Below are positions 95 to 64,000 of a DNA stretch of 64,000 nt, piece by piece. Source of the stretch: an uncultured Nitrososphaerota archaeon. GTDB taxonomy: Archaea; Thermoproteota; Nitrososphaeria; Nitrososphaerales; CADDZS01. The number at the start of each line of letters is the position of its first letter. Within the stretch, counting starts at the first letter, position 1. The notes under the pieces were generated by a model. The model saw nothing but the letters and a program-made list of their open reading frames with translations, ran no database searches and was not told where the DNA came from. The translations under genes and the position numbers were made by a program. The stretch lies in the NCBI GenBank assembly GCA_963799845.1, contig CAWCYI010000004.1, positions 1,984,001 to 2,048,000 on the forward strand, given 5' to 3'.

Positions 95-97
95 AAC

Positions 98-122: not shown

Positions 123-139
123 ACGTGAAGCTCGGTTAA

Positions 140-8254: not shown

Positions 8255-8362
8255 AATATGAAAATCCTTGGCCGAAAGTCAATCCTGTTCGACTGGTCTC
8301 AGGTTTCCAATCCGACCCATGATCAAAGCAGCATTCGGTTATTATGAGACCCGAGCTTCTAA

Positions 8363-38264: not shown

Positions 38265-41200
38265 ATTCCTCTGACCTCTGGATTGAGTTGGTATTTTCCG
38301 TTGACCTTCACGATGAGTCCAATGGTCGTGAGATTAGAGAGTGCGTTCTTGAATCCGCCCGATACCTGGTAGCCAGTAGCTTCCGCAATTTCCTCTCTAC
38401 TGAACCCCTGATCAGGGTTCCTCAGAAGATACTCGTAGATTTTCTGTGGCTGTCCGCCGCCAAGATGTTTGAGCCATTCTTCCAACGCATCTACGCTCGG
38501 TTCTCTGTACTCATCTCCGAGAATTGCGATTATCTCGTTCAAGCGGTCCTCATTGACCGAGAAGCGATTTCCCCTCTGCAAAATGTAGCCCGCTGTTTTC
38601 AGCTTGCTCAAAGAATTCTTGAAGCCGCCTGATGTTGCGCTGTAAATTGTCATCGCCCCGATCTGTTCTCGCGAGAAATCTTTTCCAGGTCGTAATGCGA
38701 GCCACGCTAGGATCTTCCGTTCTGCTTTTCCGAGTTTAGATTCCTCACTGTCCAGTTCATCACTTTGAACAGGCATGGCTTGAACCACAGAGCGAGGCGT
38801 TATGACAGGTTTTGGTGCTTGTATTGGAATCGTTGCCCTAGTTGGAATCGTCTGAGCTTTGACCACTGGCTCAAATGGGATCACCTGCGGAATTTCGGGA
38901 ATCTCGGTCGCGAGAAACCTGTCCGCTTGATCTTTGATCGCAGCACCCTGTTTTCCGATGTTATCTCCGAAGGAACTAACCTGTCTCATAACATCCTTAG
39001 CTTTGAGGAACGCAGTCTGGATCGACTTGAAGCCAGCATTGAATTTCTCGATCATCGCGTTCTGACCTCTCGCGAAATATTCCTCTTGGATCGCCTTAAC
39101 TTTCTCAGGACTCATCGGAGCTTCAAACTGCTGCTGCGCGACCTTCGTTTCCAGATTCTTGTTTTTCATCGTGAGGCTCTGAATTGTGTTCAGGTGTTCG
39201 CGATCTCTAGTACGCAGCTCTCTCAACTCGTCGAGTTTTTTCCTCTTGACCTCGGGGATCTCCTGGAAAGCTTCGAGCTGGGGTTTCACGGCTTCGGGTG
39301 TCGGCGGCGGAATGTAGACCTGACCCGCTTCTTCGGCCTCGGGGTGATGCGTTTGGACCTGACCGACCTTCACCATTCGCAATCCTGAACTGAATATACC
39401 GCCAGAGGCGTAGAAGTACCCTGGCTCAATATTTCTTAATCCCTGCGTCTGCTCTTTGCCCTCTTTCCCGCTGCTAAATCCCAGAATGTCTGCGGCGCGA
39501 TCCTGATCTACATCGGCGTTGGTATTTCCGATCATGTAATTCTTGAGCTCGGCCACCACGTCTTTGCTAAGTTTCGCGAGTCGCTGCGTTGCAAGTACAA
39601 TCGCAAAGCCTCGCTTCCTTCCTTTGCTCGCCAGATCGCGCAGAGCTTGAAGCGAGCTGTCCTCTGGCGATTCCGAGGACGAACCCCTTCTGTGTCCCGA
39701 CTCGGCAGCATAATCGTGGGCTTCATCTATCCAGATCAGGGCCGGATGCCATAATTCCCTCGGGGCATTGACAAGCTGCTCGACAAATCTCGCAACGTAG
39801 ATCTGTCGCTCGGTAACTTTCAATTCGGAAATATCTACAATTAGAGAAGCTTTGGTCCGTAGAGCAGTTAGGGCGAGTGCGTCAGCGGTATTGGGATCCG
39901 CCTCAATGTCTCCCATTAACTTTCCGTCGTCATCGCGCTCGGCGGTCGCGAGGACAAAACCGAATTTCTCTCTGAGACTGGAAAACTCTCCCTCGGGATC
40001 GATTATGATCTGCTGGACGTATCCGAAGAAGAGCTCCATCAGCATCCGCATTAACCAAGAATTGTGTACAAAGATTCCATTTGCGTAGAAGTTTTCGTTG
40101 TCCTCAACTGTCAGGTCGTACACGAAATCTGTCGTCGATGGGAGTTTTTCCACTTCTGTAATTTCATCCCAGTACACGTCCGAATAGGCAAGCCGTTTGA
40201 TGCTGCTCAGTTGCAACTCCTCGACTATGTTTTGTAGTCGCCTTCGTCCTATTACTCCTGTTTGAACAGCCCCATCGATAGAACCGATTGGAGTCCACAC
40301 TGGATTGCCCTTAACATATCGCCCCCGTGAATCGAGCTCTTGCTTTGCATCTTGATACAATTTTGGAGTTGCTGGAATTACGTCGAGAGAATCATACTGC
40401 CAGGGTGAATCTTCGTGGAGAAGTTTCATTCTCCCGCCGATAGTTTCTAGGAATCTGTCGTATGATTCGCCCGAGAACGCTGCTCTATGGTATGGTGTGC
40501 CTCCGACAATCTTGGGTTTTAGATTCAATCGAGCTACGATGCCAAAGCGAAGCAGTAGAACAGCAATATCGGGTTTCAATTTTTGGCTCTTGGTAACATA
40601 TTCGATTGAATGGTGCTTCTTGCCTCTTGGATAGCCGTCGCCGTCAAAGTATCCCTGTAACAGACCCACACAGAATTCATCAGGCGCGTTAAGTACCCAA
40701 TTCGGTATTTTCTTGTTGCTAGATCCCGAACCGAATTGCTCGCTGATCCAATTTGCGAAAGAAATGCCAAAGATTGCAGCCTGACCGTTTCGCCCTGTTG
40801 AGTGAAAGCCGAGACTTTCACCAAAAGTTTTGACGCGATCTAATGTTTCCTGATTATTCTGAGTAACGTACGTTCCCCCGTGATGGACATGCCCTTCTGC
40901 CAGGTAGATGCCACAGAAGTAACCGAATTCGAGATCGAGCTGTAACTTTCTTTGTAAAATCTGGTGAGTGGCAAAATGTCCCTTCTGCGTCCACAAGTCG
41001 GCATTAATCTCTCTAATTGGCTCAGATGAAGGTAGAGATCTGGGAAGTGGAAAACACATTCCCTTTGACAGCTCACTTCCTTTGATCGCCACCCAATCAT
41101 TTTCTCTGAATACGAGAAAGCTATGATCATCTGTTCCAGTTACGACCCGACCCGATCTGGTGTGGACTCGGACGAGATTGTTAGGCGATTTGTGTTTTTG

Positions 41201-41545
41201 TACGGCGAGAACTCGTTTCCACTCTACCTTCAATTCATGGCTGAGCGAAAGCGTCTTGATCTCTGAATGGCGTGGATAAATCTCCGAGGCGAAAGCTTCC
41301 ATAGTAGTTAGGCGAATCTCTCCGTCGATGTTCAATAGAAGCTCGCTGTCGCCTGTTACGGACTTACCACCGCCACTTGAGGCTTCGATGATCATGCGAG
41401 TCTTGATCAGTTTGGGAAGGTCGATGGTCGCCTTTCCGTCCTCTTTGTAGTGCTGCTTTCCCTTCGAGTCAGTCTCGGTCTGTTCGACCCAGGTACCGAA
41501 ATCGAAGTACTGTTTGGATCGCTGCGATGTTTTCTGTGCGCTCAA
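38261..41545 (-). CDS. HerA/FtsK-superfamily (DUF87-like) ATPase with intein, coiled coil and two C-terminal wHTH domains
   Basis: Spliced Walker A ASSGGGKS; IIDPEGEF; Walker B WIDEAH; GRKRG; ATQR. Confidence 0.88.
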   Translation of the reverse strand: MSAQKTSQRSKQYFDFGTWVEQTETDSKGKQHYKEDGKATIDLPKLIKTRMIIEASSGGGKSVTGDSELLLNIDGEIRLTTMEAFASEIYPRHSEIKTLSLSHELKVEWKRVLAVQKHKSPNNLVRVHTRSGRVVTGTDDHSFLVFRENDWVAIKGSELSKGMCFPLPRSLPSSEPIREINADLWTQKGHFATHQILQRKLQLDLEFGYFCGIYLAEGHVHHGGTYVTQNNQETLDRVKTFGESLGFHSTGRNGQAAIFGISFANWISEQFGSGSSNKKIPNWVLNAPDEFCVGLLQGYFDGDGYPRGKKHHSIEYVTKSQKLKPDIAVLLLRFGIVARLNLKPKIVGGTPYHRAAFSGESYDRFLETIGGRMKLLHEDSPWQYDSLDVIPATPKLYQDAKQELDSRGRYVKGNPVWTPIGSIDGAVQTGVIGRRRLQNIVEELQLSSIKRLAYSDVYWDEITEVEKLPSTTDFVYDLTVEDNENFYANGIFVHNSWLMRMLMELFFGYVQQIIIDPEGEFSSLREKFGFVLATAERDDDGKLMGDIEADPNTADALALTALRTKASLIVDISELKVTERQIYVARFVEQLVNAPRELWHPALIWIDEAHDYAAESGHRRGSSSESPEDSSLQALRDLASKGRKRGFAIVLATQRLAKLSKDVVAELKNYMIGNTNADVDQDRAADILGFSSGKEGKEQTQGLRNIEPGYFYASGGIFSSGLRMVKVGQVQTHHPEAEEAGQVYIPPPTPEAVKPQLEAFQEIPEVKRKKLDELRELRTRDREHLNTIQSLTMKNKNLETKVAQQQFEAPMSPEKVKAIQEEYFARGQNAMIEKFNAGFKSIQTAFLKAKDVMRQVSSFGDNIGKQGAAIKDQADRFLATEIPEIPQVIPFEPVVKAQTIPTRATIPIQAPKPVITPRSVVQAMPVQSDELDSEESKLGKAERKILAWLALRPGKDFSREQIGAMTIYSATSGGFKNSLSKLKTAGYILQRGNRFSVNEDRLNEIIAILGDEYREPSVDALEEWLKHLGGGQPQKIYEYLLRNPDQGFSREEIAEATGYQVSGGFKNALSNLTTIGLIVKVNGKYQLNPEVRGI
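40061..41362 (-). mobile_element. Intein (434 aa) with LAGLIDADG homing endonuclease; Ser at position 1
   Basis: SVTGD...; block B TDDHSF; GIYLAEG and GYFDGDG; VYDLTV...FVHN|S. Confidence 0.92.
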
Positions 41546-42198: not shown

Positions 42199-45100
42199 CT
42201 ACCATTTTGCTACAACGGCATCATTGCCCTTAGTGTCGAGTGCGAATTCTTTCTCGACCTGTTCCTTCGCCACTTCGCCAACGTCAGCTTCCCGCCAAAC
42301 CCCAGGATTTTTCACGATGAGTTTTTCCAGAGGCGTATTGGTCCGCTTGCAGTAGATTGTGTAGATGGCCTCGTTTTCTTTAGAGACGATCTGCGGCATG
42401 AAAGGTGGGGGCATCGGTTGGATCAAATTGATTTCGTGGTTCAGCCGATTGTACCAGAACATCAGGTGCTTCGCTTGCTTCCTCTGGAAAATCTTGCTCA
42501 TCGTCATCTGCCTGACGATTTCTTTGTCCTCGTCGTCCGCAGCGAAAGTTGCCAGAAGATTTTCCAGCGGAGATTCAGAGTCCGTGCGATCACTCGTGAG
42601 GCCGCGCCAGAAAGTATTCGCAGCCAGCCGCCTGACCTGTGGGGAAATTTCGCGGGTTAGCTGGGTCGCAACGTCCATCGCCATCCCGAAACGCCTCGCA
42701 GACCTGACACCTTTCTCGATCTGATTTCTCATCTGGACGTTCTCGCGCATCGAGGGATTGTTAGTACCTGCATCCGCAGCCTCGTCCAGAATGGATCGCA
42801 TAGGCAACTGCGTATGCTTCATCTTCCATGCGAGGGCAGAGTACCAGACGTTGATCGCGTTCCGCAGCTCCATATCTACGGGTTTGTGGGTCTTGTCATC
42901 TGTCCACTGCCGCCCGAGGTTTCGGACCGCTATGATCCCCGCTGCCCTGTCGTAACCAAACTCGGGCCCTTCCGCGATAGCTTTCAACTCGTTCAAACAA
43001 TCGGGAATATCAATCGCGAAATTTTCGTACTTCTCGACTTTGATTATCCGGTCATACTTGGTCATCACTTCACCATTCAGCACGTCCAGATTGTCTACAA
43101 TGTTCAGGATCAAGACGGGAACGCCCTGTGGCGGTATCTCGACTTCCTCGGCGCAGAATTTGTACGAGATGTTGCCAGGCATATTCATGTACGGCATGAA
43201 GGCCAGTGTCGGCCAGTTCGACGTTTCAGAAAGCGGGATCAGTACCGGGGCTTTGTGTTCGATAACAGTCTGGGCTGCGAGACGCGAAAGAATCGTAGAT
43301 TTTCCTGAATTGTGAACGATGAGTCCACAGCTCAGGACGTCACTGTTTGTTCCTGGTACATGTAAGTCAAAAGTGTCGGCCTCACCAACTCTTTCAATGG
43401 AGAGGATAGTAGCACTTGCGAGATTCTTGCAGGTCCAGCTCGAATATCCGTCTCGGTAAGTGTTATCGGATAGAGTCCAGCCATTCGCAAAAGTATCAAA
43501 CGTTCCTCGTCCCGTTGTGAATCCTGATGCCAGCGATCCCCATTCGCTTCGATTACGAAAATGGAATTCTTGATCCGAGATTCTGGAAATAAGAATCTGC
43601 CCGCTACGTGTACGCACTTGTTCCAATCCCATTCCAAGTTCATCATGTCGAGGACACGCGATACGTCGCGATGACGGCAACCGATATTTCGGCAAATGAT
43701 AGTGATCCTCTTTTTGGGAGTCAGTTTCTCCCGAATAGTTCTGGCGCAAGTTCGGCTGCAAAAACGGCGTTTGCTTGCGACGGGCTGGAAGGTTCCCTTT
43801 AGACAGTCGGGGTTCTCGCATTTCTTTGGTGGCGCGCGCGCGCATACGAGTTTCTTTGCCAAAGGCGGCTATTCGATCTCCAACATTCAGATTTTCAAGT
43901 GTCTGCCATTGCCCACCCAACTGCAAGAATTTGTGATCTGCGGTCGCGAGGACGATGCCGCTGCTTGTGGTCAGGCGATAAAGCATTTGTCGCTTGTTTT
44001 GAATTGGGATTGCTGATCTGAAAGCAAAGCTACCGTCTCTTTCCAGGGAGAGAACTTTCAGATCCTTTTGCCCCATAACGTCAGCAATTCTCCGTGGACC
44101 CGAGATTGTCTCGATTTGTGTCTCTGCGGACAAGCATCCGGGGTCGCCCGCGAAAAACGAGACTACTGCATATTGAGGACTAGGCATGTAGCGAAAATCG
44201 TAATCAAAGTACGCCTGAACAGTTCCAGTGAGTTCTCCGCTTCGCCAGAAATCTTGATCGATTGTCTGGAAAATAGCGTCGCCTCGGAAGCCGTCCTGAA
44301 TCCGTTGCTTCGATTCATCCGTATCTCCGACCTTATCCCAGATAATTTGCAGAGGTTCGGAGTATTCCACTTCTGCCCTAAACTTGTTGATCAGCGGCCC
44401 CTCGGTTAGAGCCATCATCTCTCCGAAAACTTGGTGGATCTGTTCCCACTCCGCGCCGAACTGAACTTTGTGATACTCTTTCAGCCAGCCGATACACTGC
44501 ACGTTGCTGGCTACTCGAAACAGATCCTGAATGTTGAAGTACCGCTTTGATCCGCCAATTTTGTCAATCGGTGTTTTCAAATCCAGCCCATTGTAAGCCG
44601 CGTAAATCATCAGTTGCAAGATCGCTTTCTCGTCGATGCTCGTGTTTTGCTCTCCGCGAATTGTCTCGAAGTGGAGATCTGAAAGGTAGCGTCGGTACTC
44701 CAAGTTGGAAATCTGAAAATGCTTCCAGCCGTAAGCCTCGTTCACGTCATCCATCAATGTAATGAGTGTCATGTATGCAGCAGCGTAAGCTTTCTCCATC
44801 GCCTCGTACGCGTACCATCCAGCCACGATAGCAGCGTCAGGTTCCACGCCCCTCATTGCAAACATTTCCTCAATTCTCGCGTAATCGTTCACGATTGCGT
44901 TTTCCAGCCTTTCGTACAAATCCTCGATGTTCAGGTTGAGGTCTGCGTAGTCGCTGGTCGCGATCCCCCGCCACGCCCTAGCGTTCCTATCTGAGACTTG
45001 CATCATGCGGTACTCGATGATCGTTTCGAGCTCTCGGGCATCCCGCTTTCTGCGGTTCTTCAAGTCGATTACTTGCAGCATGGTATTGTAGACACCGAGC

Positions 45101-45387
45101 GCGGCGTACATTTTCTCGCGCCATCCGAGAAAGGTCGCTAGACGCTTTTCGTGAACTTGAGCTCGGAAGGCAAATCGATTGAACTGCTCCAGTCCGTTGA
45201 ACCCGGCCATAATGCCCTTAATCTGCATCAAGAGGCCATATCGCTGATCGGCAATGCTGGTCGGATCAGCCTCCATCCTTTCCTGCGCGGCTTTTTGATC
45301 ATCCTCGAACTTCTGCGCCTCGTTCTGGAAAGTTTTCGCTACATTTTGCGGTGCGTATTCGTTGGAAACGCCAGAATCTTGAGCCAA
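42199..45387 (-). CDS. Large FtsK/HerA-like P-loop ATPase (packaging/secretion-type candidate) with intein
   Basis: Spliced Walker A GDPGSGKS; Walker B ILDEA; ARRFG; VATQ; long helical N-terminus. Confidence 0.8.
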   Translation of the reverse strand: MAQDSGVSNEYAPQNVAKTFQNEAQKFEDDQKAAQERMEADPTSIADQRYGLLMQIKGIMAGFNGLEQFNRFAFRAQVHEKRLATFLGWREKMYAALGVYNTMLQVIDLKNRRKRDARELETIIEYRMMQVSDRNARAWRGIATSDYADLNLNIEDLYERLENAIVNDYARIEEMFAMRGVEPDAAIVAGWYAYEAMEKAYAAAYMTLITLMDDVNEAYGWKHFQISNLEYRRYLSDLHFETIRGEQNTSIDEKAILQLMIYAAYNGLDLKTPIDKIGGSKRYFNIQDLFRVASNVQCIGWLKEYHKVQFGAEWEQIHQVFGEMMALTEGPLINKFRAEVEYSEPLQIIWDKVGDTDESKQRIQDGFRGDAIFQTIDQDFWRSGELTGTVQAYFDYDFRYMPSPQYAVVSFFAGDPGCLSAETQIETISGPRRIADVMGQKDLKVLSLERDGSFAFRSAIPIQNKRQMLYRLTTSSGIVLATADHKFLQLGGQWQTLENLNVGDRIAAFGKETRMRARATKEMREPRLSKGNLPARRKQTPFLQPNLRQNYSGETDSQKEDHYHLPKYRLPSSRRIACPRHDELGMGLEQVRTRSGQILISRISDQEFHFRNRSEWGSLASGFTTGRGTFDTFANGWTLSDNTYRDGYSSWTCKNLASATILSIERVGEADTFDLHVPGTNSDVLSCGLIVHNSGKSTILSRLAAQTVIEHKAPVLIPLSETSNWPTLAFMPYMNMPGNISYKFCAEEVEIPPQGVPVLILNIVDNLDVLNGEVMTKYDRIIKVEKYENFAIDIPDCLNELKAIAEGPEFGYDRAAGIIAVRNLGRQWTDDKTHKPVDMELRNAINVWYSALAWKMKHTQLPMRSILDEAADAGTNNPSMRENVQMRNQIEKGVRSARRFGMAMDVATQLTREISPQVRRLAANTFWRGLTSDRTDSESPLENLLATFAADDEDKEIVRQMTMSKIFQRKQAKHLMFWYNRLNHEINLIQPMPPPFMPQIVSKENEAIYTIYCKRTNTPLEKLIVKNPGVWREADVGEVAKEQVEKEFALDTKGNDAVVAKW
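43309..44136 (-). mobile_element. Intein (276 aa) inside Walker A
   Basis: CLSAET...; block B ATADHKF; TFDLHV...IVHN|S. Confidence 0.9.
43332..43862 (-). CDS. Zn-finger + DUF559/Vsr-like endonuclease in the +1 frame inside the intein
   Basis: CENPDC...RRFCSRTC; VIEANGDRWH; RDEERLILLRMAG...LTETDI. Confidence 0.65.
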   Translation of the reverse strand: MAKKLVCARAPPKKCENPDCLKGTFQPVASKRRFCSRTCARTIREKLTPKKRITIICRNIGCRHRDVSRVLDMMNLEWDWNKCVHVAGRFLFPESRIKNSIFVIEANGDRWHQDSQRDEERLILLRMAGLYPITLTETDIRAGPARISQVLLSSPLKELVRPTLLTYMYQEQTVTS

Positions 45388-50362: not shown

Positions 50363-50689
50363 TCAGCCAACGGCTGGAAGCTGGTTTGCCAGCATCCGAC
50401 CTAATTTCTCGACGTGTTCAACGGTTATCTCGGGCAGCAGGATAGATCCGTAGGCTCTGTGCCGATCACGACCTTCGAGCATTGGAAAACGTCTGATTCT
50501 CCCACGGGCGTAGAGCCTGTTCACCGAATTCTGAGTCTGCCACCGAGTAGTGGATAACTCTTTCATTATTTCTGAGACACCCAAGTAGGCGAGTCCAGTT
50601 TTCTGATCTTCTTCCGTCAGGGCGCGAGCCTTTGAGTCGAGCAGCGCGAGGATTTTCTTCTGTGTGTGTCCTCGGCGGATCGCGCTCAT
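50363..50689 (-). CDS. Winged helix-turn-helix protein
   Basis: LGVSEIMKELSTTRWQTQNSVNRLYARGRIRR. Confidence 0.7.
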   Translation of the reverse strand: MSAIRRGHTQKKILALLDSKARALTEEDQKTGLAYLGVSEIMKELSTTRWQTQNSVNRLYARGRIRRFPMLEGRDRHRAYGSILLPEITVEHVEKLGRMLANQLPAVG

Positions 50690-51726
50690 TTGCTAACGAT
50701 CTGTTCCTCGCGCTCGTACATTTCTTTGATAGCTCGCGCCACGTCGAGCTTTTCTAAAAACTCGATCCGTTCCCTCAAGTCAGAGGACAATAGGTGCTTT
50801 CTCTCCGCGAGATATTCAACACACTTGCCAGCCTGTTTTCCGAGGAACGCTGGTGATGGCGGTTCGTCTTTTCTGGGCTTGGATCCGGATTTACCTTTCT
50901 CGCCCTCAGTCTCGCCCTGGGGAGCTTCGATCTGAGCAGGCTTGCCCATCCGCAGCCGTTTCCTGTTGATCACACTCGCTTTCGCAAAATCTGTAATCTC
51001 GGGCATCGGCTTGTTGTCGGCGATCATTTTCAAAAGTTCGAGGCGATCCGATTTGTCCTTCACTTGAGTAACAAGAGCTAGGTGCGGTTCTTTCATGTTC
51101 TTCACGATGTTGTTCCGAAGTTCCACCGCGTCTTTGATACCTTCCTGCTCGTCCAAAACTTCATCCATCGTTGCAGCGATCTGCAAACAAGTAGCAATGC
51201 GGTCCCGAGCTTTGTTGAAAAAGTCTGCGAGTCCAGGCACGTCGCATTTCAGAATCTTGCGCCCGATCATGTAGAGCTTTCCTTCTTCGTACATCTTGAG
51301 CTGTCGCCGCTGCAAGTTGTCGTCTGCCACGATTTTCATTACGACTAGCTGGCTGACGTTATCGAGGCATTGAAACTCTGCACTTTTGACCTCGGGCATG
51401 AACATCTTGATCGCGCTGCAACGCCTGTGTCCGGTAACTAACTCGTAATAGCCATCTTTCGCTTTTCTCGGATCGGAGTGAGGCACGATGATAGGGCGGG
51501 AGATCAGGCCATTCGCTCTAATGCTGTAAGCGAGCTCTTCCAACCCTTTGCGATCTTCGTAACCGAAAATTCGAGTCTGGTACTTGGACATTACAAGATG
51601 ATCCATGAACGCCGTTACGATATGCGAGTCGAAATTTCGGAGCTTCCCTGCGACCGTGATCTGATCATGCTTCTCGCTCGATGAAACGTGTTCGGGGTTT
51701 TGGCCTTCCTGTGCCGGCATTACCAT
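50686..51726 (-). CDS. ParB/Srx-family protein
   Basis: LEELAYSIRANGLISRPII, YELVTGHRR and DNLQRRQL motifs, then an HTH. Confidence 0.85.
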   Translation of the reverse strand: MVMPAQEGQNPEHVSSSEKHDQITVAGKLRNFDSHIVTAFMDHLVMSKYQTRIFGYEDRKGLEELAYSIRANGLISRPIIVPHSDPRKAKDGYYELVTGHRRCSAIKMFMPEVKSAEFQCLDNVSQLVVMKIVADDNLQRRQLKMYEEGKLYMIGRKILKCDVPGLADFFNKARDRIATCLQIAATMDEVLDEQEGIKDAVELRNNIVKNMKEPHLALVTQVKDKSDRLELLKMIADNKPMPEITDFAKASVINRKRLRMGKPAQIEAPQGETEGEKGKSGSKPRKDEPPSPAFLGKQAGKCVEYLAERKHLLSSDLRERIEFLEKLDVARAIKEMYEREEQIVSK

Positions 51727-57569: not shown

Positions 57570-58358
57570 ATGCCGAAGTTCTTCCTAGTCGGTAGTGCCG
57601 GTCAAAGCCGCCACCACTTTGAACAGCGTTCTCAGCGAAAGCAAAGGAAAGCTACCGCTAGGAGATCCTCGGTAGTCAAAAAGAAATCCCGAGCCGTCGA
57701 GCGTCCAGTTCCCAAGAAGATCGAAAAGCGGGAAATGGAAGCTAAGGCAGTAGCTCAAGTTGTTTCGCAAAGACCACCCCTTGGGGCGCACACGGTTGAT
57801 ATTACTCAGGACGTTGCCAGGGCGATTGAGAATTCTAAATTTGGTCCGCTGATCAAAGCGCGAGAAGCTGCGGCAAAGTCAGCCCCAACAAATGAGCAGA
57901 TCATTCGATTTCCAAACAGACCCAGGCCGAGGCCGCCTAGTCGCCCGTACAATTCGATCCAAACTCAGAAGGAAGCTGCTGCGGTCAGAGAGCAGAAGAA
58001 AGAGACTAGAGAGCTTATCAAAGAATTTCCAGACCTGAATTCAAAGGAAAAAGATCTCATCAAGAAAGCTGGACTTGTCGGCGTTGGAAAACCGAAAGTC
58101 TCGATCAGCAAACCCGACTCTACAATAGTGGTGCAGCAAAAGGTCGTTCAGACTCCGACGACGAGCAGTGGGCATGATACGGGTTGGGATCTCGTGGGGA
58201 AAGTTCCTTCATCCAGCGGCCACGGAGATTACGAGATTAAGATCAATCGGAACACGGGAAGATTAGGCTGTTCTTGTCCGCGATACAAATTCAGCGGTAT
58301 GCAGAGCTGCAAACACACGGAAGCGTACCAAGCGAACCCAGAAGCCTATAAGGTCTAA
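57570..58358 (+). CDS. Basic protein with C-terminal SWIM Zn finger
   Basis: VPSSSG..YEI...CSCP...CKH. Confidence 0.8.
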   Translation: MPKFFLVGSAGQSRHHFEQRSQRKQRKATARRSSVVKKKSRAVERPVPKKIEKREMEAKAVAQVVSQRPPLGAHTVDITQDVARAIENSKFGPLIKAREAAAKSAPTNEQIIRFPNRPRPRPPSRPYNSIQTQKEAAAVREQKKETRELIKEFPDLNSKEKDLIKKAGLVGVGKPKVSISKPDSTIVVQQKVVQTPTTSSGHDTGWDLVGKVPSSSGHGDYEIKINRNTGRLGCSCPRYKFSGMQSCKHTEAYQANPEAYKV

Positions 58359-58363
58359 CGCCC

Positions 58364-59497
58364 GTGCCGAAGTACTTCCTCGCGAAGCACTATCCACGCA
58401 GAGCTCCGCCAGCAAAAAAGAATCCTCGCCCTAAATTTGAGTACAAGCACGAGGAAGCCAAATACCGCGTAGATCTAAAACGCGATCTGCGAGTCCGAGG
58501 AATTCCGTTTAACAAAGAAGCCAAGACGGAGATTCTGGAAAAGGCACACGAGAGAGTTGGCGAAACCTATCCGCGTGTTACTGTGATGGGTGGGATGTTC
58601 TCAAATCTGATTACATCTCCACGCGCAATTTTGCTGGACAGAAACCTGGCGGGAAAAATCAGTTCTGTTTGTGGACATGAACGGTGGACCGAAAGATATG
58701 GTGCGAGTGCTGTATCTCACGGGCCGAGACGCTGGAAAGATCGAGAAGGTCAGGCTAGGAAATCTCAACGCTGATATGTACGACAGGACCCCGATGACGT
58801 TGAAAGAGGCGAAGGACGAGGCTGCGAAAAATCTCAAGCGATCCAAACTGGAAGCTTTCGCGAATTCACACGCAGTTACTCGTAACGAAGTGGTTGCCAT
58901 TGCAGCTGAAGATGAGGAAAGATCTTCACGCCTCTCCAGATGGGCTGCAAGTGATGAGCCACGGTCTAATGAAAGACAGCGACCTTCAAATCACAGTCAA
59001 GATGCCCGAGGGAAAACGGATCTCCCAGAATCAAGTGAAAGAGGCGATCCGCAACGCTGGATACAAAGGCGAGATGGAAACTTTCCTCTTGGGCCGCGTG
59101 ATTGAGGTCAGGTTCATAGTACCGGGTCAGGATAAGGCGCGTGAAGAACTGGAAAAGATTGAGGCAGAGGAAGAACGGAAATCTCGAAATGATCTGGCGC
59201 GTCGAAGTCGGCAGGACAGAAAAAGCCGACCTGCTTCGAGAGGATTTGAAGAAACGGAATCTCCCAGGAGCTTTCATCTTGGGATACGACGATGCGGTTC
59301 GCAGCACGGATCCTAACAACGTCAATTACGACAAATCATTCGACGCGAGCAAGCCAGAGGAAATGTCACAGCGAATCATAAACAGTTTTGGTGATCCGAA
59401 ATTGCAGACCAAGCAGTACGCTGATGGAGTCAGAGCCTTCGTGAAAGCGAAGAAAGAAGGAAAGGACGTTTCAAAACCGTTGGACTGGTTACTATGA
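58364..59497 (+). CDS. Basic KHYP-leader protein, fragmented by several frameshifts (ORFs 58364/58671/58894/59141)
   Basis: Staggered overlapping ORFs; leader MPKYFLAKHYPRR. Confidence 0.55.
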
Positions 59498-59577
59498 AAA
59501 AAATTAGAAGATCTGTGACAATCACTGACAAAAAATCAAATTCCATCCTGAAGCTTTGTAAAAGCACCAGCCGAGTT

Positions 59578-61401
59578 TTAGGTGGAGGGGAATGGAGAAT
59601 AGTATACCTCAGTGAGAGAGCTCAAGCCCGGTGAGAAGTCTAGTCCTCCGACGCAGAAGATCTCAGCTTTGGCAGTGAAACATGATTGGTCTGAGACAGC
59701 TGAAGGATAGTCGGATCCAGCACTCCAATTGCCTAAACCTGACGAACTCACAAGGGAATAGTAGGTCTGATTCAACGAGTAGCCACTCGCATTCTCCCCT
59801 CCGACGCACTCTATTATTCCCGTGTTGTAGGCACACGCCGCGCTTGCAACCGCCCATGGGTACGCGGGACCCTGCGACCACGGCCCGATTTGCCCATTCG
59901 AGAATGGTGCGTAATACACGGCGTTAGTTACGCCATTCGGTCCATAGCCTCCGACACAAATGATCCAGCCTCCGCCGCTCGTGCATGGCATGCTGTAGTA
60001 AATGGAGACCGGATAGTTATAGGGAGAGAGTCGCCATTGTCCTAGACCGTTGCTCGTCATAGTCGCGTAATACACCGAGTTATCGTTTCCAGATATGCAG
60101 TAAACATAGTCTGATATTGACGCGCAGCTTCCAACAAAGTTCATTGGATAGCTGGTTGTCTCTTTCCAAACTCCGACTCCTGAGGATGAAATGGGGGCAT
60201 AATAGGTCGCATTGGTGTCACTGGGTGCGGCGTCGTCTCCACCAATGCAGTACACAAAGCCCCCGTAGGTGACGCACTGCAGATCCGTGTCGTTCAAAGG
60301 GTACGGAGTGGTGCTCTGCCACTCGCCTAAGCCACTAGAAGTTACCTCCGCGTAATAAGTCGCGTTTGATCCAGATTCATTGCCAATTCCGGCTATACAG
60401 TATACATAACCAGAGCTCTGCACACAGGACCCGTCGGCGAACTCTTGGGGATAGGTTGTCGTCGCGTTCCACAAAATGCCGTTGCTAACGACAGGATTCG
60501 GACCGGGGTAAGTGATTTCTGGCAAATACAGGAAAACGGTGAAATTGTTAGTCAGTGACCATTTCTGAGTAAACATTGTTCCTGAAACATTCTTCGAATC
60601 GATCGCGAAGCTCAAGCTGATACTGAAATTAGTCTGGGGACCGGTATAATTCTGCTGCATCACTTCGCCGATTTTGCCTTCTAGAAACTTTCCACCGCCC
60701 AAAGACCAATTGACATCTGTTGGTGGAGACCCACCATTAGGGACGTTCAGGCTCACCACATCAAAATCGAATGTACTAGAGCCAACCTGAGTAATGTTGA
60801 ACGATACAGTATCGAGCGGCATTTCGTTGTAGGGATCAGTAGCAGGATATACCGCATAGCAGGTCATCGTATTCTGGTTTGTAAAAATTGGGTAGGACTC
60901 TCCTCCACCACTCATGTCGCCACAATCCAGGCCGATCCCGGTCTGATTACCTGCCAGAAAATCACTGGTGTATTGAGAAATCCCAGCTGAGGGGCCACTC
61001 AACTGTCCCGAACTAAAGACCAGACTAGTGAAAACACCTCCGAAATGGCAGGGAGGTGGTGGCATGGTCGCGTTACCCTGCGAGCACGGCGTAAAAGTCG
61101 AGGTAGTCATCGGTGTCGAAGTAAAGTTTGTAATCACCCTAGTCGTGTTTGTCGAGCTATTCTGAATCGAAGAGTAATTTGCAATGTGTGAACCGCTCGA
61201 ATTGGAATATTCGCTGAGAGTTGTAGATTCCTGTGAAGAGGTGGTTGTAGCTGCCGAGATTGCAGTCGTTGTTGAAGAAGGTTGATCCAATACTACCGAA
61301 GATTGAGTAGAAGAGGTTACTTCAACAGCCGCAATGACTAATGCAGCAACAACAATCAAAGCACCGATAGCAAGGAGGGATGATCTCCCTGGCCGAGGCA
61401 A
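59578..61401 (-). CDS. N-anchored surface protein with C-terminal Kelch-like beta-propeller
   Basis: Six repeats of W..TT.YP....C....YVYCIGG...YYA. Confidence 0.85.
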   Translation of the reverse strand: MPRPGRSSLLAIGALIVVAALVIAAVEVTSSTQSSVVLDQPSSTTTAISAATTTSSQESTTLSEYSNSSGSHIANYSSIQNSSTNTTRVITNFTSTPMTTSTFTPCSQGNATMPPPPCHFGGVFTSLVFSSGQLSGPSAGISQYTSDFLAGNQTGIGLDCGDMSGGGESYPIFTNQNTMTCYAVYPATDPYNEMPLDTVSFNITQVGSSTFDFDVVSLNVPNGGSPPTDVNWSLGGGKFLEGKIGEVMQQNYTGPQTNFSISLSFAIDSKNVSGTMFTQKWSLTNNFTVFLYLPEITYPGPNPVVSNGILWNATTTYPQEFADGSCVQSSGYVYCIAGIGNESGSNATYYAEVTSSGLGEWQSTTPYPLNDTDLQCVTYGGFVYCIGGDDAAPSDTNATYYAPISSSGVGVWKETTSYPMNFVGSCASISDYVYCISGNDNSVYYATMTSNGLGQWRLSPYNYPVSIYYSMPCTSGGGWIICVGGYGPNGVTNAVYYAPFSNGQIGPWSQGPAYPWAVASAACAYNTGIIECVGGENASGYSLNQTYYSLVSSSGLGNWSAGSDYPSAVSDQSCFTAKAEIFCVGGLDFSPGLSSLTEVYYSPFPST

Positions 61402-61541
61402 TTTTCTCCGGACCCTTTCACTTGGAAGTTATGAAGTGCGGTTACTTTAACTTTGAAGAGACGTTCGCGCTTCGGAAGCATTACTTCCTTGGAAAGACAG
61501 AAATTTATAATCGCCCTCTGTTGATAGAATAAGGTGAAAAT

Positions 61542-61985
61542 ATGCTAAAGACGAGCCCGTTTCTTCTGTTTGACGGAAACTGCGCTGAGGCAATGACTTT
61601 CTACCACGAGTGCTTTGGAGGAGAGTTAAGACTGACAAAGCTTGCCGATTCACCTATGAAGGATATGCTACCTCCCGAGAAACACAACCGAATCATCAAT
61701 GCATATCTGAAAAATGGCATCATTGAGATCTCGGCCACCGACTGGATGGCGGCCCCGCAGTACGAACCAACCCTGGGAGAGATGTACGCCGTATTTGTCA
61801 GGGGCAATTATGACGAGGTAAAGCCGGTATTTGACAAGCTTGCAGTTGGGGCAGAGAAGGATAGGTTCCAAGAACTGCACCAGATGCCGTTTGGAATGTA
61901 CGGACAGATGTATGATAAATTCCACAGGCATTGGATATTTGTGGCGGATGAAAAGAATAACCCGGCTGATGCTACCCAAAAGTGA
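61542..61985 (+). CDS. VOC / PhnB-like (3-demethylubiquinone-9 3-methyltransferase family) protein
   Basis: PFLLFDGNCAEAMTFY...FG.YGQ.YDKF..W. Confidence 0.9.
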   Translation: MLKTSPFLLFDGNCAEAMTFYHECFGGELRLTKLADSPMKDMLPPEKHNRIINAYLKNGIIEISATDWMAAPQYEPTLGEMYAVFVRGNYDEVKPVFDKLAVGAEKDRFQELHQMPFGMYGQMYDKFHRHWIFVADEKNNPADATQK

Positions 61986-62302
61986 AGGAAAGAAACTTGT
62001 GCAGCCGTAAACAGCTTCTATCTTGATCCTGTTTGGGGCGGCGAAGACACGGCTCCTCTGTTCAATACTGTAACATTTGGATAGTGAGCAGATCTAAATT
62101 CTAAGATGCCGCGGTCGCAGAGGTTCCTGAATCAAGTCGTCTACTGGCCCCTCGAAAATCAGTCGAGAACAGACGGCAGAAGATCAAGAAACGCGGGTTA
62201 AGAAACGCCTGGATTTGAAGCACTGACAAAACCCGATCCCGAGGAAGAAAAGAAAGAGCAGGCGCGACGATTGAGAAACTTTCTAAATCCGCTGTACTTC
62301 AA

Positions 62303-62809
62303 CTAGCAGAATCCAAAGTAGTCTGAGGATTCAGAATTTTCTCGTAATTTACATCGCTCATCAAGAATAGTTGCCCCTGTTCGGCCATGTCCACGATCAG
62401 CTCGAGCTCCCTTCGGCAACAAGTACTCATCAATATCCTCGGGATTGATCTTCTCGTCAGGATTGTTGTCGTCCTCTGTCAGATACCATTCAACACCGTC
62501 GCGAGTAGCCAGCCACAAAACTTTCGCGTCAGGTCCGAATCGTTTTTCGATCTCAACAAAAATATCTGCGAGTTTGGAATTCTTCCGCATCCCCCGGTTC
62601 TCCGCAATCTCGCCCCTCTCGTCGTTGTGCAGCTCTTTGATTTCATGGGTGATAACTTCTTCCGAGTTTCTGTATCCCTCGCCGTACGCTGTCTCTGTGC
62701 GGTATCCCTTCATCGCAGAGAGAATTTCGCGAGCTTCCTTCGTGCGTTCAGGAATTCGGATCTTGTGTGCAGCTCGCTTCGGTCCGCGCTGCGGATAATG
62801 CTTACTCAA
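62303..62809 (-). CDS. KHYP-leader hypothetical protein (frameshift near 62403)
   Basis: MSKHYPQR; correction gives ...PKGAELIVDMAEQGQLFL. Confidence 0.65.
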   Translation of the reverse strand: MSKHYPQRGPKRAAHKIRIPERTKEAREILSAMKGYRTETAYGEGYRNSEEVITHEIKELHNDERGEIAENRGMRKNSKLADIFVEIEKRFGPDAKVLWLATRDGVEWYLTEDDNNPDEKINPEDIDEYLLPKGARADRGHGRTGATILDERCKLRENSESSDYFGFC

Positions 62810-62982
62810 AGAGAATCTTCGAGATCGTCGCCGCTTTCCAGCCTGTCGCTCGTCGAGAATTTAGCTTCCAGTTCCTCGGGCGGTTCCCGATCCTCGCTGG
62901 GCTTCCTCTTGTGCGATTTGCCGAAATGCGGTCGTTTAGATTTGCCACTAGCCGTTCTGTTTGGATAGTGGCGGCTCGGCAT
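62806..62982 (-). CDS. Small RHYP-leader protein (58 aa)
   Basis: MPSRHYPNRTASGKSKRPHFGKSHKRKPSEDREPP...; stop overlaps the next TTG; below the ORF-track cutoff. Confidence 0.7.
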   Translation of the reverse strand: MPSRHYPNRTASGKSKRPHFGKSHKRKPSEDREPPEELEAKFSTSDRLESGDDLEDSL

Positions 62983-62984
62983 GT

Positions 62985-63290
62985 CTATCGCCCAAGCGAT
63001 CTGACGTAACTTTCGTCCACTTTTGCAGTGGCTAGAATATCTCGTCCTTTGTTTCTGTGCCAGACGACCAAGTTGTTCAATGCGTGGATAACTGCACCTG
63101 AGCCGTGTCTTTCGACGGCCATTCGCAGGGCAGCTTCCCTTTCGCCTCTGGACAGATCGACATGGTATCCCTCATCTGTCAGGATCCCTGGGTGGACCCG
63201 AGGAATTCTAATCTTCGGCTTTCTCGTACCACGGGCACGGCCTCTCGACCGCGATTTAACGGTACGTTGCGGGTAATGTTTCTGAGACAA
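62985..63290 (-). CDS. KHYP-leader + DUF5771-like viral domain
   Basis: GILTDEGY...REAALRMAVERHG...VIHALNNLVVW.RN...D.SYV. Confidence 0.6.
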   Translation of the reverse strand: MSQKHYPQRTVKSRSRGRARGTRKPKIRIPRVHPGILTDEGYHVDLSRGEREAALRMAVERHGSGAVIHALNNLVVWHRNKGRDILATAKVDESYVRSLGR

Positions 63291-63324
63291 TTCCGTCCAA
63301 TTCTAAAAACACTTTTTCTAGTGC

Positions 63325-63894
63325 ATGGCCAAGAATCCTCGGCATCATTTCTACCTCGCGAAAGTTGGGAAGAAAACTCGATCTCCCAAGCCCAAACCGA
63401 GAGCGAAAAAGAAACCCAGAGCAGTAGAGCCATTTGTATCGGGCGTGAAGGAACTGCGGGAAGAATTCCCGCAGGCGACGATCATCACTGCTAACGGGAT
63501 TTCGACCCCGCCAGAACACGGGATCGAACATTATCAGAAAAGACCTGAACCCGATCTGACGCTGAAAGACCTCGGCCAATATTACGGATCGCAGGAATGG
63601 CAACGGGACCGTCTGACTGGCGTACTTCTAACTGATGGAGTCCGCTACATCATGGAGAACGGGTACGGCTGGTTTGTCTCCGATGCACTTCCAGTATTGA
63701 AAGAAAACGAGGCGAAAGGCGAGGCGTTCCAAGTCGTCGAATTGAAGTTGGGCCCAGGCAAAACAGCTGATCTGACAATCGGTGATGGAAATAATCACCA
63801 GCTCTACAAGAAACACATCAACTACACGGACGCGAAGGCGAAGCCCAAACTCTACTTTACTGATAATGTATTGATGCTCGCTGGCGAGTATTAG
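63325..63894 (+). CDS. Basic leader + DUF6876-like domain
   Basis: LGQYYGSQEW...LTDGVRY...FQVVEL...DGN...YTD...VLMLAGEY. Confidence 0.75.
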   Translation: MAKNPRHHFYLAKVGKKTRSPKPKPRAKKKPRAVEPFVSGVKELREEFPQATIITANGISTPPEHGIEHYQKRPEPDLTLKDLGQYYGSQEWQRDRLTGVLLTDGVRYIMENGYGWFVSDALPVLKENEAKGEAFQVVELKLGPGKTADLTIGDGNNHQLYKKHINYTDAKAKPKLYFTDNVLMLAGEY

Positions 63895-63910
63895 GGCAAC
63901 GGTCTAGCCT

Positions 63911-64000
63911 TTGGCGCGTAAGCACTATCCTTCGCGCCGTCCACGCGCCAGAAGATCAAGAAAGAATCCACTCTACACGGAATCAATCAATCGATTCCGT
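63911..64000 (+). CDS. KHYP-leader protein (partial, window edge)
   Basis: TTG GCG CGT AAG CAC TAT CCT = MARKHYPSRRPRARRSRK... Confidence 0.65.
   Translation, partial: MARKHYPSRRPRARRSRKNPLYTESINRFR

Follow-up and report, generated by a model that had tools for sequence, protein, structure and literature searches.

A short N-terminal leader is most likely a common address tag on about thirty otherwise unrelated small soluble proteins, which are encoded in one part of a 4.6 Mb archaeal genome. In our own ORF calls, 32 ORFs began with M-x(0-13)-[KRHQN]-H-[YF]-P-x-[RK]-x-P followed by a Lys/Arg/Pro-rich tract, and all of them were located within C4:2041570-2126708. This 32-member set was defined by eye together with the motif. 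The motif core, [KRH]-H-[YF]-P-x-[RK]-x-P, lies inside the first 2-15 residues; variants read H-H-[YF]-F-L-A-K-P, and a second [YF]FL copy is sometimes present. The predicted start codons were ATG (20 genes), TTG (9) and GTG (3), and the motif followed the start codon at a distance of 1 to 14 residues. No published description of the shared tag was found.

A six-frame scan of the genome (4.60 Mb) was used to map the motif. The pattern [KR]HYP.R was matched 19 times, and 11 of these matches were strictly N-terminal, that is, 1-10 residues past the start codon of an ORF with at least 46 further codons. All 11 fell in C4:2042385-2126013, as expected from the proposal in the earlier note that the label is specific to the element; the chance of finding 11 of 11 inside one 86 kb stretch is ~1e-19. 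Equal frequency of the motif in host proteins, which the same note had set in advance as counting against the label, was not seen: a relaxed N-terminal pattern matched 27 of 1,736 candidate starts in the region versus 33 of 101,870 outside (binomial P = 6e-32). Thus 27 of the 60 relaxed matches sit in 1.9% of the genome, and those outside the region fall mostly at internal starts and lack the basic tract. The 173 ORFs of the region (25,116 residues) contained 21 relaxed matches within their first 20 residues and one at a later position, and this single match becomes N-terminal with a later start codon. The tag is strictly N-terminal and restricted to the element region. Membrane-like segments were present in none of the 32 leader proteins versus 32 of 82 other ORFs of at least 90 aa. 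Only soluble proteins are tagged, and the tag is absent from proteins with a membrane-like segment.

The five leaders first reported, at 58364 (+), 62809 (−), 62982 (−), 63290 (−) and 63911 (+), are all present at positions 57570-64000 of the window, the whole 64,000-nucleotide stretch of DNA that was analysed. Two more, at 57570 (+) and 63325 (+), had been missed in the same span. The assembly of this span contains at least two single-base indels, and these two lie outside the leaders. The protein at 57570..58358 (+, 262 aa) starts with MPKFFLVGSAGQSRHHFEQR followed by the basic tract, and it carries a C-terminal CxC...CxH Zn-finger-like motif, which we take to be SWIM-like; a Pfam search of this protein gave no match. 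The next leader ORF, at 58364..58774 (+, 136 aa as assembled), starts with MPKYFLAKHYPRR, which is readable as a tandem pair of motif copies. Three overlapping ORFs (58671-59105, 58894-59316 and 59141-59497) come next, in other frames of the same strand. The ORFs in 58671..59497 probably represent the rest of a longer leader gene that has been interrupted by frameshifts, and at least one of these frameshifts is either an assembly indel or a strain variant. Base 58908 is absent from short-read contigs, and its removal would join ORFs 58671-59105 and 58894-59316 in one frame.

Three leader genes are encoded on the minus strand. The protein at 62303..62809 (168 aa as assembled) starts with MSKHYPQRGPKR (MSKHYPQR), and its orthologue on contig L110 retains the leader; its C-terminal part is uncertain because a base at 62403 is missing from every covering contig. 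A 58 aa miniprotein at 62806..62982, starting MPSRHYPNR, has a basic N-terminal half and an acidic C-terminal half, and its 59 aa orthologue in L110 starts MPSCHYPNR. The protein at 62985..63290 (101 aa, starting MSQKHYPQR) contains DUF5771 at residues 35-98 (E 1e-7); it has orthologues in L110 and L111, with a pN/pS of 0.08 over the first 45 codons. A divergent intergenic spacer of 34 bp (63291..63324), containing the palindrome AAAAA-N3-TTTTT, separates this gene from the plus-strand gene at 63325..63894. The latter encodes 189 aa starting MAKNPRHHFYLAKVGKK (MAKNPRHHFYLAK). In its structural model residues 1-38 are disordered, residues 38-47 form a helix and residues 79-189 form DUF6876 (E 5e-22; profile positions 3-117 of 117, hence complete). 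The last leader gene of the window starts at 63911 (63911..64000, +) with MARKHYPSRRPRARR (MARKHYPSRR); its 145 aa product continues past the window and gave a weak GNAT match.

All synonymous codons of the motif are in use in the 32-member set. His was encoded by CAC (20) and CAT (10), Tyr by TAT (19) and TAC (8), Pro by CCA (4), CCG (9), CCT (5) and CCC (2), and the motif Arg by five different codons. For four orthologue pairs compared with L110, the first 45 codons showed a pS of 0.39, a pN of 0.12 and a pN/pS of 0.30, and the rest of the same proteins a pN/pS of 0.21. In the congeneric genome G002:C144, three adjacent genes that are 37-61% identical to G000 genes keep their leaders (MAKHYPQREPRSP, MSSHHFPRRSPKKK and MSSHHYPNRRSPTK), and leaders are also kept on metagenome contigs L110-L112. 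The motif core is kept in the orthologues, and the flanks vary by gain or loss of residues. Since all synonymous codons are used, pN/pS is low and orthologues keep it, the tag is selected as a peptide. On these sequence comparisons, the leader is a peptide under purifying selection and not a conserved DNA element, in agreement with what the earlier note had read from synonymous codon changes. The leader was not found on G167:C19, a related thaumarchaeal element that also encodes an integrase, a TFIIB-like protein and a homologue of the ATPase, so elements of this kind do not bear the tag in general.

The Lys/Arg-rich stretch that had been described behind the leader is a property of the whole set: the 40 residues past the motif contain on average 10.1 Lys+Arg and 3.8 Pro, versus 4.6 and 1.6 in 1,097 background ORFs. 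The leader is disordered in AlphaFold, with pLDDT <50 at residues 1-38 and 1-37 in two models. The domains that follow are unrelated, as first suggested, and the proteins are not full-length paralogues: after removal of the first 40 residues, only 1 of 351 pairs among the 27 proteins >70 aa gave E <1e-3. Pfam recognised four families in five of the 32 leader proteins (DUF6876, DUF5771, LPD29 and two GNATs) and none in the other 27. Three of four DUF6876 database homologues are bare proteins of 111-120 aa, and the fourth, 79% identical, bears the leader. Among the matches listed for LPD29 (100 plasmid records), alignments start at query residues 49-56. Because the same domains occur elsewhere without it (bare DUF6876, plasmid LPD29), the leader is, as judged from these alignments, a modular add-on. 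Of the plasmids carrying LPD29 homologues, 75 of 100 are typed conjugative, and on a Xylella plasmid two LPD29 genes adjoin a Trb operon and a gene for a 1,495 aa zincin polyvalent protein. A conjugation link is documented for only one of the 32 cargo proteins (LPD29). DUF6876 homologues were found on only six plasmids, one conjugative and four non-mobilizable by typing. According to the available text of PMC5512222, LPD29 was originally defined in polyvalent proteins, which are thought to travel with DNA.

The gene context looks like a thaumarchaeal integrated element, a reading based on two intein-bearing HerA/DUF87 ATPases, ParB, TFIIB-like and integrase genes and on the failure to find capsid genes. 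ATPase 1 (38261..41545, −, 1094 aa) contains a LAGLIDADG intein at residues 87-495; homologues of 659 aa without the intein, 90-94% identical, occur in metagenomes. Members of its family, DUF87 with two winged-helix domains, occur widely in bacteria and DPANN archaea and are 30-45% identical to it, and the C-extein of ATPase 1 gave a match (E 1.7e-10) to a PHROG annotated as terminase large subunit. ATPase 2 (42199..45387, −, 1062 aa) contains an intein at residues 462-693; for its C-extein, similarity to DUF87 / TrwB_AAD_bind / FtsK clusters was seen only in language-model features. Both are members of the HerA/FtsK superfamily; we attempted to assign either of them to VirB4 or VirD4, and neither match was established. 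A 346 aa protein with a ParB N-terminal domain (ParB_N) is encoded at 50686..51726 (−), the region contains a tyrosine integrase gene, and a TFIIB-like gene, a second ParB-like gene and a methylase gene are located directly upstream of the window. As integrase-like genes occur more than once in the region, several tandem elements are possible, and the leader genes may not share one element with the ATPase genes. Pfam and PHROG surveys of 116 other ORFs of at least 90 aa detected no capsid, portal, scaffold, prohead-protease or tail family and no recognisable protease family. A 69 aa ORF at C4:2059036-2059245, below the 90 aa cut of these surveys, contains an HExxH motif read by eye.

We propose that the leader serves as a portable tag confined to a single element lineage. 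Its short linear motif and the disordered Lys/Arg/Pro-rich chain of ~30-70 residues stand ahead of 30 or more small soluble proteins, unrelated to one another, in a large integrated mobile-element region of a soil/peat archaeon. The motif probably serves for recognition by a single putative partner common to all, presumably encoded by the element, on which all tagged proteins would dock. The basic tract may bind DNA or give a free end for threading. The likeliest partner would be the element's DNA-transfer apparatus, a putative module of the two HerA/FtsK-type ATPases, and ready-made establishment or anti-defence proteins would then reach the recipient cell along with the DNA. To this hand-over to the DNA-transfer machinery we give slightly less than an even chance.

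Other functions could be served by a leader of this kind. It is rather unlikely that it acts as a generic nucleic-acid-binding tail (an N-terminal arm or an AT-hook/SPKK-type tract), with no protein receptor and no transfer, which would concentrate the proteins on element or host DNA, the HYP motif being part of the DNA/RNA contact. The tract is indeed strongly basic, Pro-rich and modelled as disordered, its sequence and length change from orthologue to orthologue, as in composition-driven tails, and the GNAT, LPD29 and Zn-finger-like cargo is plausibly DNA- or chromatin-acting. However, an electrostatic tail explains neither the near-invariant His-Tyr/Phe-Pro-x-Arg core at residues 2-15, which is kept while the tract drifts, nor its strict N-terminal position. 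DNA binding by the tract would fit the transfer reading too, if it were the route of co-transfer. Very unlikely is a 5' nucleic-acid signal, either a promoter, initially transcribed region or translation-initiation element of one regulon, or what is left of a single ancestral 5' cassette that recombination has spread. A palindrome, AAAAA-N3-5-TTTTT[CA], does occur within 30 nt upstream of the start in 10 of the 32 leader genes and is 4.4x denser in the region than elsewhere, and the spacers of three divergent gene pairs are only ~28-38 bp, so that promoter elements may enter the coding sequence. Against this, third codon positions are free to vary while the amino acids are retained, the pN/pS of 0.30 over the first 45 codons is near the value for the domains, the distance from start to motif is variable, and self-BLASTN of the region shows no DNA-level similarity among leader genes. 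Codon variation and pN/pS already largely refute such a signal, as far as the sequences tell.

The leader might also mark the proteins for degradation or processing, as a degron common to their N-termini or as a site cleaved by a protease or unfoldase of the element or the host, and so keep them short-lived or activate them jointly. AAA+ unfoldases need a short motif and a long disordered N-terminal stretch to engage a substrate. The leader has this layout and the element has AAA-type ATPase genes, the HExxH motif of the 69 aa ORF might belong to a peptidase, and polyvalent proteins are typically processed by zincin peptidases, according to the available text of PMC5512222. Such a tag nevertheless seems quite improbable, as the surveys recognised no protease family and no conserved cleavage-like residue pair was found behind the motif. 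We consider it improbable that the leader directs packaging into virions or vesicles in the manner of phage T4, the region then being or containing a provirus or a vesicle-forming element. The terminase match of ATPase 1 favours packaging, whereas the 116 ORFs lack the structural families named above and the 32 leader proteins gave no strong PHROG structural match (best 'portal', E 0.007). The absence of capsid genes is only weak negative evidence, because Pfam and PHROGs often miss archaeal virus capsid proteins.

Variants with H-H-Y-F-L-A-K or P-R-F-F-L-V near the N-terminus superficially resemble a Tat signal, the consensus of which is S/T-R-R-x-F-L-K. A Tat signal was rejected, as the leader has neither a twin arginine nor a hydrophobic h-region, none of the 32 proteins has a membrane-like segment and a highly charged tract follows.

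The capsid-targeting sequence (CTS) of phage T4 is removed by prohead protease. It is described as a short conserved N-terminal peptide, the sole shared part of diverse small proteins, many of them basic, which counter host defence and move with the DNA (available text of PMC3012670). The earlier note had drawn this analogy, and its logic stands: as in T4 IPI-III and Alt, a short N-terminal peptide is common to otherwise unlike small proteins. The analogy goes no further than this logic, because the 116 other ORFs yielded no gene for a capsid, portal or prohead protease. The CTS of T4, a tailed phage, targets the scaffolding core, whereas no capsid, scaffold or protease gene was detected in the leader region, and the leader differs in its archaeal host, its unrelated motif, its long basic disordered tract and the lack of an evident cleavage site.

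Substrates of type IV secretion and conjugation are, like the leader proteins, unrelated proteins with a common, often positive, signal. In the available text of PMC11288057, these signals are mostly C-terminal or internal and read by the VirD4 coupling protein; positively charged C-terminal tails, and a C-terminal domain common to Xanthomonas antibacterial effectors, are also described (PMC11288057, PMC8740702, in part), as is the transfer of numerous plasmid-encoded proteins into recipients by conjugation, for example with plasmid pED208 (same sources). The leader, in contrast, is N-terminal, its presumed machinery is archaeal, and no VirD4 could be assigned. The gene make-up of the region matches the large thaumarchaeal integrative-conjugative elements of Krupovic et al. 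2019, with their pair of big P-loop ATPases, ParB, TFIIB homologue and integrase; the available text of that article (PMC6563490) does not mention a shared N-terminal tag. Polyvalent proteins are described as delivered with invading DNA to secure establishment (Iyer et al. 2017; available text of PMC5512222). LPD29 comes from their repertoire and the role proposed for the leader proteins is the same, but a polyvalent protein is a giant chain that unites 2-15 domains, whereas the leader proteins are separate, small and individually tagged. If the transfer reading is true, many singly tagged small proteins would play the part of the large polyvalent proteins and type IV secretion substrates of bacterial conjugative elements, and the leader would do the same job as the capsid-targeting sequence of phage T4.

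The earlier note had drawn attention to five N-termini that share a His-Tyr-Pro-x-Arg motif ahead of a basic tract. It had proposed that this leader is specific to a mobile element, that the peptide rather than the DNA is conserved, and that the domains behind it are unrelated. All five N-termini were found exactly as given, and two further leaders were recognised in the same span, at window positions 57570(+) (MPKFFLVGSAGQSRHHFEQR) and 63325(+) (MAKNPRHHFYLAK). A six-frame scan of the complete 4.60 Mb source genome for [KR]HYP.R returned 19 matches. In 11 of them an ORF of real size has its start codon 1-10 residues ahead of the motif, and every one of these falls within positions 2042385-2126013 of C4, the contig on which the window spans 1984001-2048000; the remaining eight are dispersed, none being N-terminal in a substantial ORF. 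With a relaxed N-terminal pattern, 27 of 1,736 candidate starts matched inside the region compared with 33 of 101,870 outside (binomial P = 6e-32). The leader is thus specific to the element region, as had been proposed. The N-termini of ORFs, which like their start codons were our own predictions, were inspected, and variants such as HHYFLAKP, HHFFLASP and QHYFLIKP were added. The resulting working set comprised 32 leader ORFs from C4:2041570 to 2126708, seven of which begin within the window and 25 past its end. Since the set was chosen by the motif, statistics on it are descriptive.

The motif-anchored consensus of the 32 leaders was x-[KRHQN]-H-[YF]-P-x-[RK]-x-P-[KR], with the motif beginning at residue 2-15 (median 4). 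An ATCUN-type metal site, which requires a His as the third residue of the mature chain, was ruled out because the His ranges from residue 3 to 16. Among the region's 173 ORFs the relaxed motif was N-terminal 21 times and internal once, and the single internal case vanishes if an alternative start codon is taken. A second word, [YF][FY]L[AVGI], was present in the first 45 residues of 10 of the 32 leader proteins, compared with 9 of 1,486 background ORFs. It is placed ahead of, behind or fused to the first motif, so that several leaders resemble two copies of one motif. The 40 residues past the motif contain on average 10.1 Lys+Arg and 3.8 Pro, compared with 4.6 and 1.6 in the background. Membrane-like segments were found in none of the 32 leader proteins and in 32 of the 82 other region ORFs of at least 90 aa. 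A Tat signal peptide was ruled out by this lack of a hydrophobic segment and by the absence of RR from the motif. Behind the basic tract a further word, [LIM]-x-[EQKR]-[EQK]-[FY]-[PS] (such as LREEFPQ, IKEFPDL and IREFSNL), was detected in 4 of 32 leader proteins compared with 26 of 1,486 background ORFs. Its locations are C4 2041570+, 2047325+, 2049657- and 2097169+, as well as contig C144 of the congeneric genome G002 (7571-8275(-)). In the predicted model of the DUF6876 protein (window 63325-63894(+)) this word is a short helix.

Synonymous codons were all in use for the motif residues (His, CAC 20 and CAT 10; Tyr, TAT 19 and TAC 8; four codons for Pro and five for Arg), and self-BLASTN of the region revealed no DNA likeness between leader genes. 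In the first 45 codons of four orthologue pairs, compared with the metagenome contig L110, pS was 0.39 and pN was 0.12, giving a pN/pS of 0.30 against 0.21 for the rest of the proteins. The leader is therefore translated, and the constraint on it is about equal to that on the folded domains; these results bear out the proposal that it is the peptide which is conserved. Contig C144 of G002 carries three adjoining leader genes, orthologues of C4 2126001+, 2097169+ and 2094322+ at 61, 37 and 56% identity, respectively. They retain the H-[YF]-P-x-R core; the flanking residues differ, and the basic tract has gained and lost residues. Leaders were also retained in the metagenome contigs L110-L112 (88-94% identical), and the altered gene order in L112 indicates that the leader gene set is modular. 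Near-identical DNA was present in contigs of soil and peat metagenome runs. The three leader genes on C144 adjoin two very large ORFs of 1,123 aa and more than 713 aa (positions 1-5478). The latter contains a WWARRPL motif, which we take to be that of DUF1156-type DNA methylases, and the two ORFs call to mind the pairing of methylase and helicase in polyvalent proteins.

When the first 40 residues were removed from the 27 leader proteins longer than 70 aa, one of 351 pairs was clearly paralogous (2051141- with 2126001+, E = 9e-24), and the next-best pair had an E of 0.012. Pfam recognised four different families in five of the 32 leader proteins and none in the other 27. These were DUF5771 (window 62985-63290(-), residues 35-98), DUF6876 (window 63325-63894(+), residues 79-189, the whole profile), LPD29 (C4 2049657-, residues 53-111, E = 9.5e-13) and GNAT (two proteins). 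The cargo domains are thus indeed unrelated, and the proteins are not full-length paralogues. They range from 47 to 380 aa with at most one recognised domain each; across all 32, NCBIfam gave a GreA match at chance level and nothing else, and PHROGs made no useful addition. Four database homologues of the DUF6876 protein were found, of which the one at 79% identity bears the leader and the three at 42-46% are bare domains of 111-120 aa. Plasmid homologues of this protein align only from residue 48-82 onward, and those of the LPD29 protein, among the matches listed, only from residue 49-56 onward. As judged from these alignments, the tag is an add-on. AlphaFold2 gave pLDDT below 50 for residues 1-38 of the DUF6876 protein, where the leader precedes a confident DUF6876 domain, and for residues 1-37 of the C4 2126001+ protein. 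Fold searches with both models, the latter of low confidence, returned nothing at E ≤0.001; the top match of the DUF6876 model was an Enterococcus protein of unknown function. No homologue of the DUF6876 protein was detected in 60 relatives, no member of the C4 2126001+ family in the metagenome contigs, no usable match to the 380 aa leader protein in the ESM Atlas and no match to the DUF5771 protein in phage and plasmid collections.

The DNA pattern ARRCAYTAYCCNNNNMGN was counted over 401 genomes of the class, including the unpublished G401. It matched 13 times in the source genome (control 2), 58 times in G203 (control 1) and at most six times in the others. G203, which belongs to the same order and another family, was ruled out as a leader carrier because its matches are one dispersed identical repeat. 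The 17-mer AGACATTATCCAAAACG occurs there more than 50 times, on both strands and dispersed over the 2.2 Mb genome, suggesting a small repeat or insertion sequence that is present in very many copies throughout. Over the family's 13 genomes, including the unpublished G001, the same pattern revealed real leader genes in G002 only, a fragment. Beyond such tallies, no result draws on the two unpublished genomes. A leader profile searched against 1.84 billion representative proteins gave no match at E up to 0.001; with 39 columns it is too short for significance. A word search with the profile among longer proteins gave three matches at E up to 10. One is on a contig equal in length to C4, and the other two are as long as leader proteins of the source genome; all seem to be this genome's own proteins or nearly identical copies. 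In the literature we found no description of the motif or of shared N-terminal tags in archaeal conjugative elements. Address tags on diverse mobile-element cargo are of a known kind; as far as our searches show, this is the first archaeal, and apparently non-viral, case.

The source genome comprises nine contigs with 47% G+C, and its archaeal marks are a partial archaeal SSU rRNA (459 bits), about ten TFIIB genes and LAGLIDADG inteins. Some twenty families with genomes of 1-3 Mb make up its order, and its phylum is probably Nitrososphaerota. The sole archaeal SSU rRNA match (C1:57-823) is partial, at a contig end and in three pieces with short gaps in the model. No amoA match was obtained in this genome, and the same search was also blank in all 14 control genomes. 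At 58908 and at 62403 the window has one base more than the short-read contigs of three or four runs. Assembly errors of the homopolymer type, or strain variants, are the likely source; two leader genes are frameshifted as a result, and both extra bases fall outside the leaders. At 58364-59497 the overlapping ORFs therefore probably derive from a single longer leader gene that assembly or strain indels have broken in part, and the C-terminus of the 62809(-) protein is uncertain. One contig of run X5, at depth 3 and a likeness threshold of 85, joined 58395 to 62806; the joint was rejected as a probable cross-match of two leaders.

Together, the window and the 90 kb beyond it resemble a single large mobile-element region or a tandem series of elements. 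In the stretch that immediately precedes the window, a 426 aa integrase-like ORF (judged by its N-terminus), a ParB-like gene and a methylase were recognised by eye, and a TFIIB-like ORF is located at C4:1981782-1983221. The window encodes two intein-split ATPases of the HerA/FtsK superfamily, ATPase 1 at 38261-41545(-) with a LAGLIDADG intein at residues 87-495 and ATPase 2 at 42199-45387(-) with a shorter intein at residues 462-693, as well as a ParB_N protein at 50686-51726(-). A tyrosine integrase (PF00589) is encoded at C4:2115564-2116022, and a C-terminal fragment resembling it at C4:2053453-2053746. Other ORFs of the region encode an IS110 transposase and GmrSD_N, NUDIX, HNH and AAA proteins, the last clamp-loader-like by PHROGs. 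Beyond the window, a block at C4:2065047-2087578 contains more than 10 small membrane-anchored proteins with an N-terminal membrane helix followed by a Thr-rich part. Several begin alike (MQTRQVVA..., MKGTTVLSLVG...), and the proteins of the block are candidates for the element's surface or pilin-like proteins. Neither att repeats nor a tRNA gene was found at the region ends. A 232 bp inverted repeat of 97% identity has copies 136 kb apart, at C4:1974611-1974840 and 2110974-2111205, one beside the 426 aa ORF and the other within an ORF of 356 aa; related elements may have recombined and left it behind. A 2,211 aa ORF at window 140-6775(+) has internal repeats of about 0.3-1.1 kb with about 67-74% DNA identity (C4:1985415-1988792).

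Intein-free homologues of ATPase 1 (659 aa, 90-94% identical) are present in metagenomes, which indicates that the intein gain was recent. The DUF87 match is weak in ATPase 1 of the window and clear in these homologues, and the consensus of the family reads as having two C-terminal winged-helix-like repeats. Members of this family are common among bacteria and DPANN archaea, at 30-45% identity. A 33% identical copy in the thaumarchaeal genome G167 lies in a typical integrated element, adjoining an integrase and a TFIIB-like gene; that element has no HYP leaders. A match to phrog_7035 is common to both ATPases, and ATPase 1 has a second one, to a PHROG annotated as terminase large subunit. For the C-extein of ATPase 2, a likeness to DUF87, TrwB_AAD_bind and FtsK clusters emerged by language-model features only, and a look-alike cluster of one ATPase in that search carries the label Nitrososphaerota. 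Neither ATPase matched a Pfam VirB4 or VirD4 family, and a PDB sequence search with the exteins gave weak HerA matches for ATPase 1 only.

Ten of the 32 leader genes, and a few other genes of the region, have the palindrome AAAAA-N3-5-TTTTT[CA] in the 30 nt ahead of their start codons, and its density in the region is 4.4 times that in the rest of the genome. Examples are located at window 63291-63324 and C4:2056111-2056148 and 2061663-2061690, with others in C4:2041000-2127000. Three divergent leader-gene pairs have spacers of just about 28-38 bp built round this palindrome, which probably serves a regulon as its shared promoter or operator.

The tag is restricted to the element, N-terminal, selected as a peptide, modular and found on soluble proteins only. 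We lean, with slightly less than even confidence, towards a signal that hands proteins over to the DNA-transfer machinery of the element. Through the motif, all leader proteins would dock to the same partner; the disordered basic tract would bind DNA or provide a free end. Tagged proteins would be passed to the machinery, and ready-made establishment or anti-defence proteins would reach the recipient along with the DNA. Such a hand-over is favoured because LPD29 belongs to the polyvalent-protein repertoire (available part of PMC5512222), and because conjugative plasmids account for 75 of the 100 that carry a homologue, the homologues on a Xylella plasmid adjoining Trb genes and a zincin polyvalent protein. 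It is also favoured by precedents in the available parts of three sources: many plasmid proteins are moved by conjugation systems (PMC11288057), anti-defence genes cluster in the leading region of plasmids (PMC11541004), and the phage T4 capsid-targeting sequence follows the same logic (PMC3012670). Four points weigh against it. No reader of the tag was found, most known type IV secretion signals sit at the other end of the protein, a conjugation pedigree is seen in one cargo family only, and the leader genes may belong to another element than the ATPases. A complex prediction of a leader (alignment A5) with an intein-free ATPase 1 homologue (A3) scored 0.00, which counts neither way.

The richness of the tract in Lys and Arg is also consistent with a plain nucleic-acid-binding tail, which we consider unlikely, the motif ahead of it being constrained at the peptide level and confined to N-termini. 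A tag for packaging into virions or vesicles, for which T4 provides the model, is less probable again: no capsid, portal, scaffold, prohead-protease or tail family was detected by Pfam and PHROGs in the 32 leader proteins or the 116 other ORFs of at least 90 aa, a search that divergent archaeal capsids could escape. The disordered N-terminal position would also suit a degron or processing tag, which we regard as improbable. A signal in the 5' nucleic acid would likewise lie at the start of each gene, and is largely excluded by the free synonymous codon use and the pN/pS of 0.30, so that its probability is very small.

The movement and cargo of archaeal conjugative and cryptic integrated elements are little understood, and in the available part of PMC6563490 neither a relaxase nor a substrate signal is defined for them. 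A sharply defined tag on about 30 unrelated proteins offers an experimental handle, the peptide being usable as bait for its reader, and the leader set provides candidate establishment or anti-defence proteins, 27 of them without a known family. It is conceivable, if rather doubtful, that the His-Tyr-Pro-x-Arg tag and basic tail send about 30 ready-made proteins with the element DNA into the recipient cell. If so, archaeal conjugation would have its first described protein-delivery code, an alternative to the bacterial way of fusing all the parts in a single polyvalent protein. Being transferable, the tag could then be attached to proteins of choice to deliver them from one archaeal cell to another, and its reader would reveal the substrate receptor of the archaeal transfer machine. 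Even a mere DNA-binding tail or degron would be an unusually clear short linear motif organising the whole accessory gene set of the element.

Thaumarchaeal integrative-conjugative elements have a VirB4/VirD4-like ATPase pair, ParB and TFIIB and no relaxase, according to the available part of Krupovic et al. (PMC6563490). The region carries ParB_N, a TFIIB-like gene, a PF00589 integrase and a pair of large ATPases placed at the level of the HerA/FtsK superfamily only, a make-up that matches theirs as far as sequence can assign it. Set beside the internal proteins of phage T4 and the polyvalent proteins of bacteria, the leader set suggests that the tagging of diverse cargo for delivery has independent origins. 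Polyvalent proteins combine 2-15 effector domains per polypeptide, whereas leader proteins have at most one recognised domain; from the polyvalent repertoire (LPD, zincin peptidase and methylase-helicase), LPD29 occurs in one of the 32 and the others have no such family. Like the T4-type capsid-targeting sequence, the leader is a short conserved N-terminal peptide common to otherwise unrelated small proteins. In the T4-type system, however, a protease removes the tag, and the region has no capsid, scaffold or prohead-protease match in Pfam or PHROGs. The leader is positively charged, as type IV secretion substrate signals often are, but most of those signals are C-terminal or internal, whereas the leader is strictly N-terminal.
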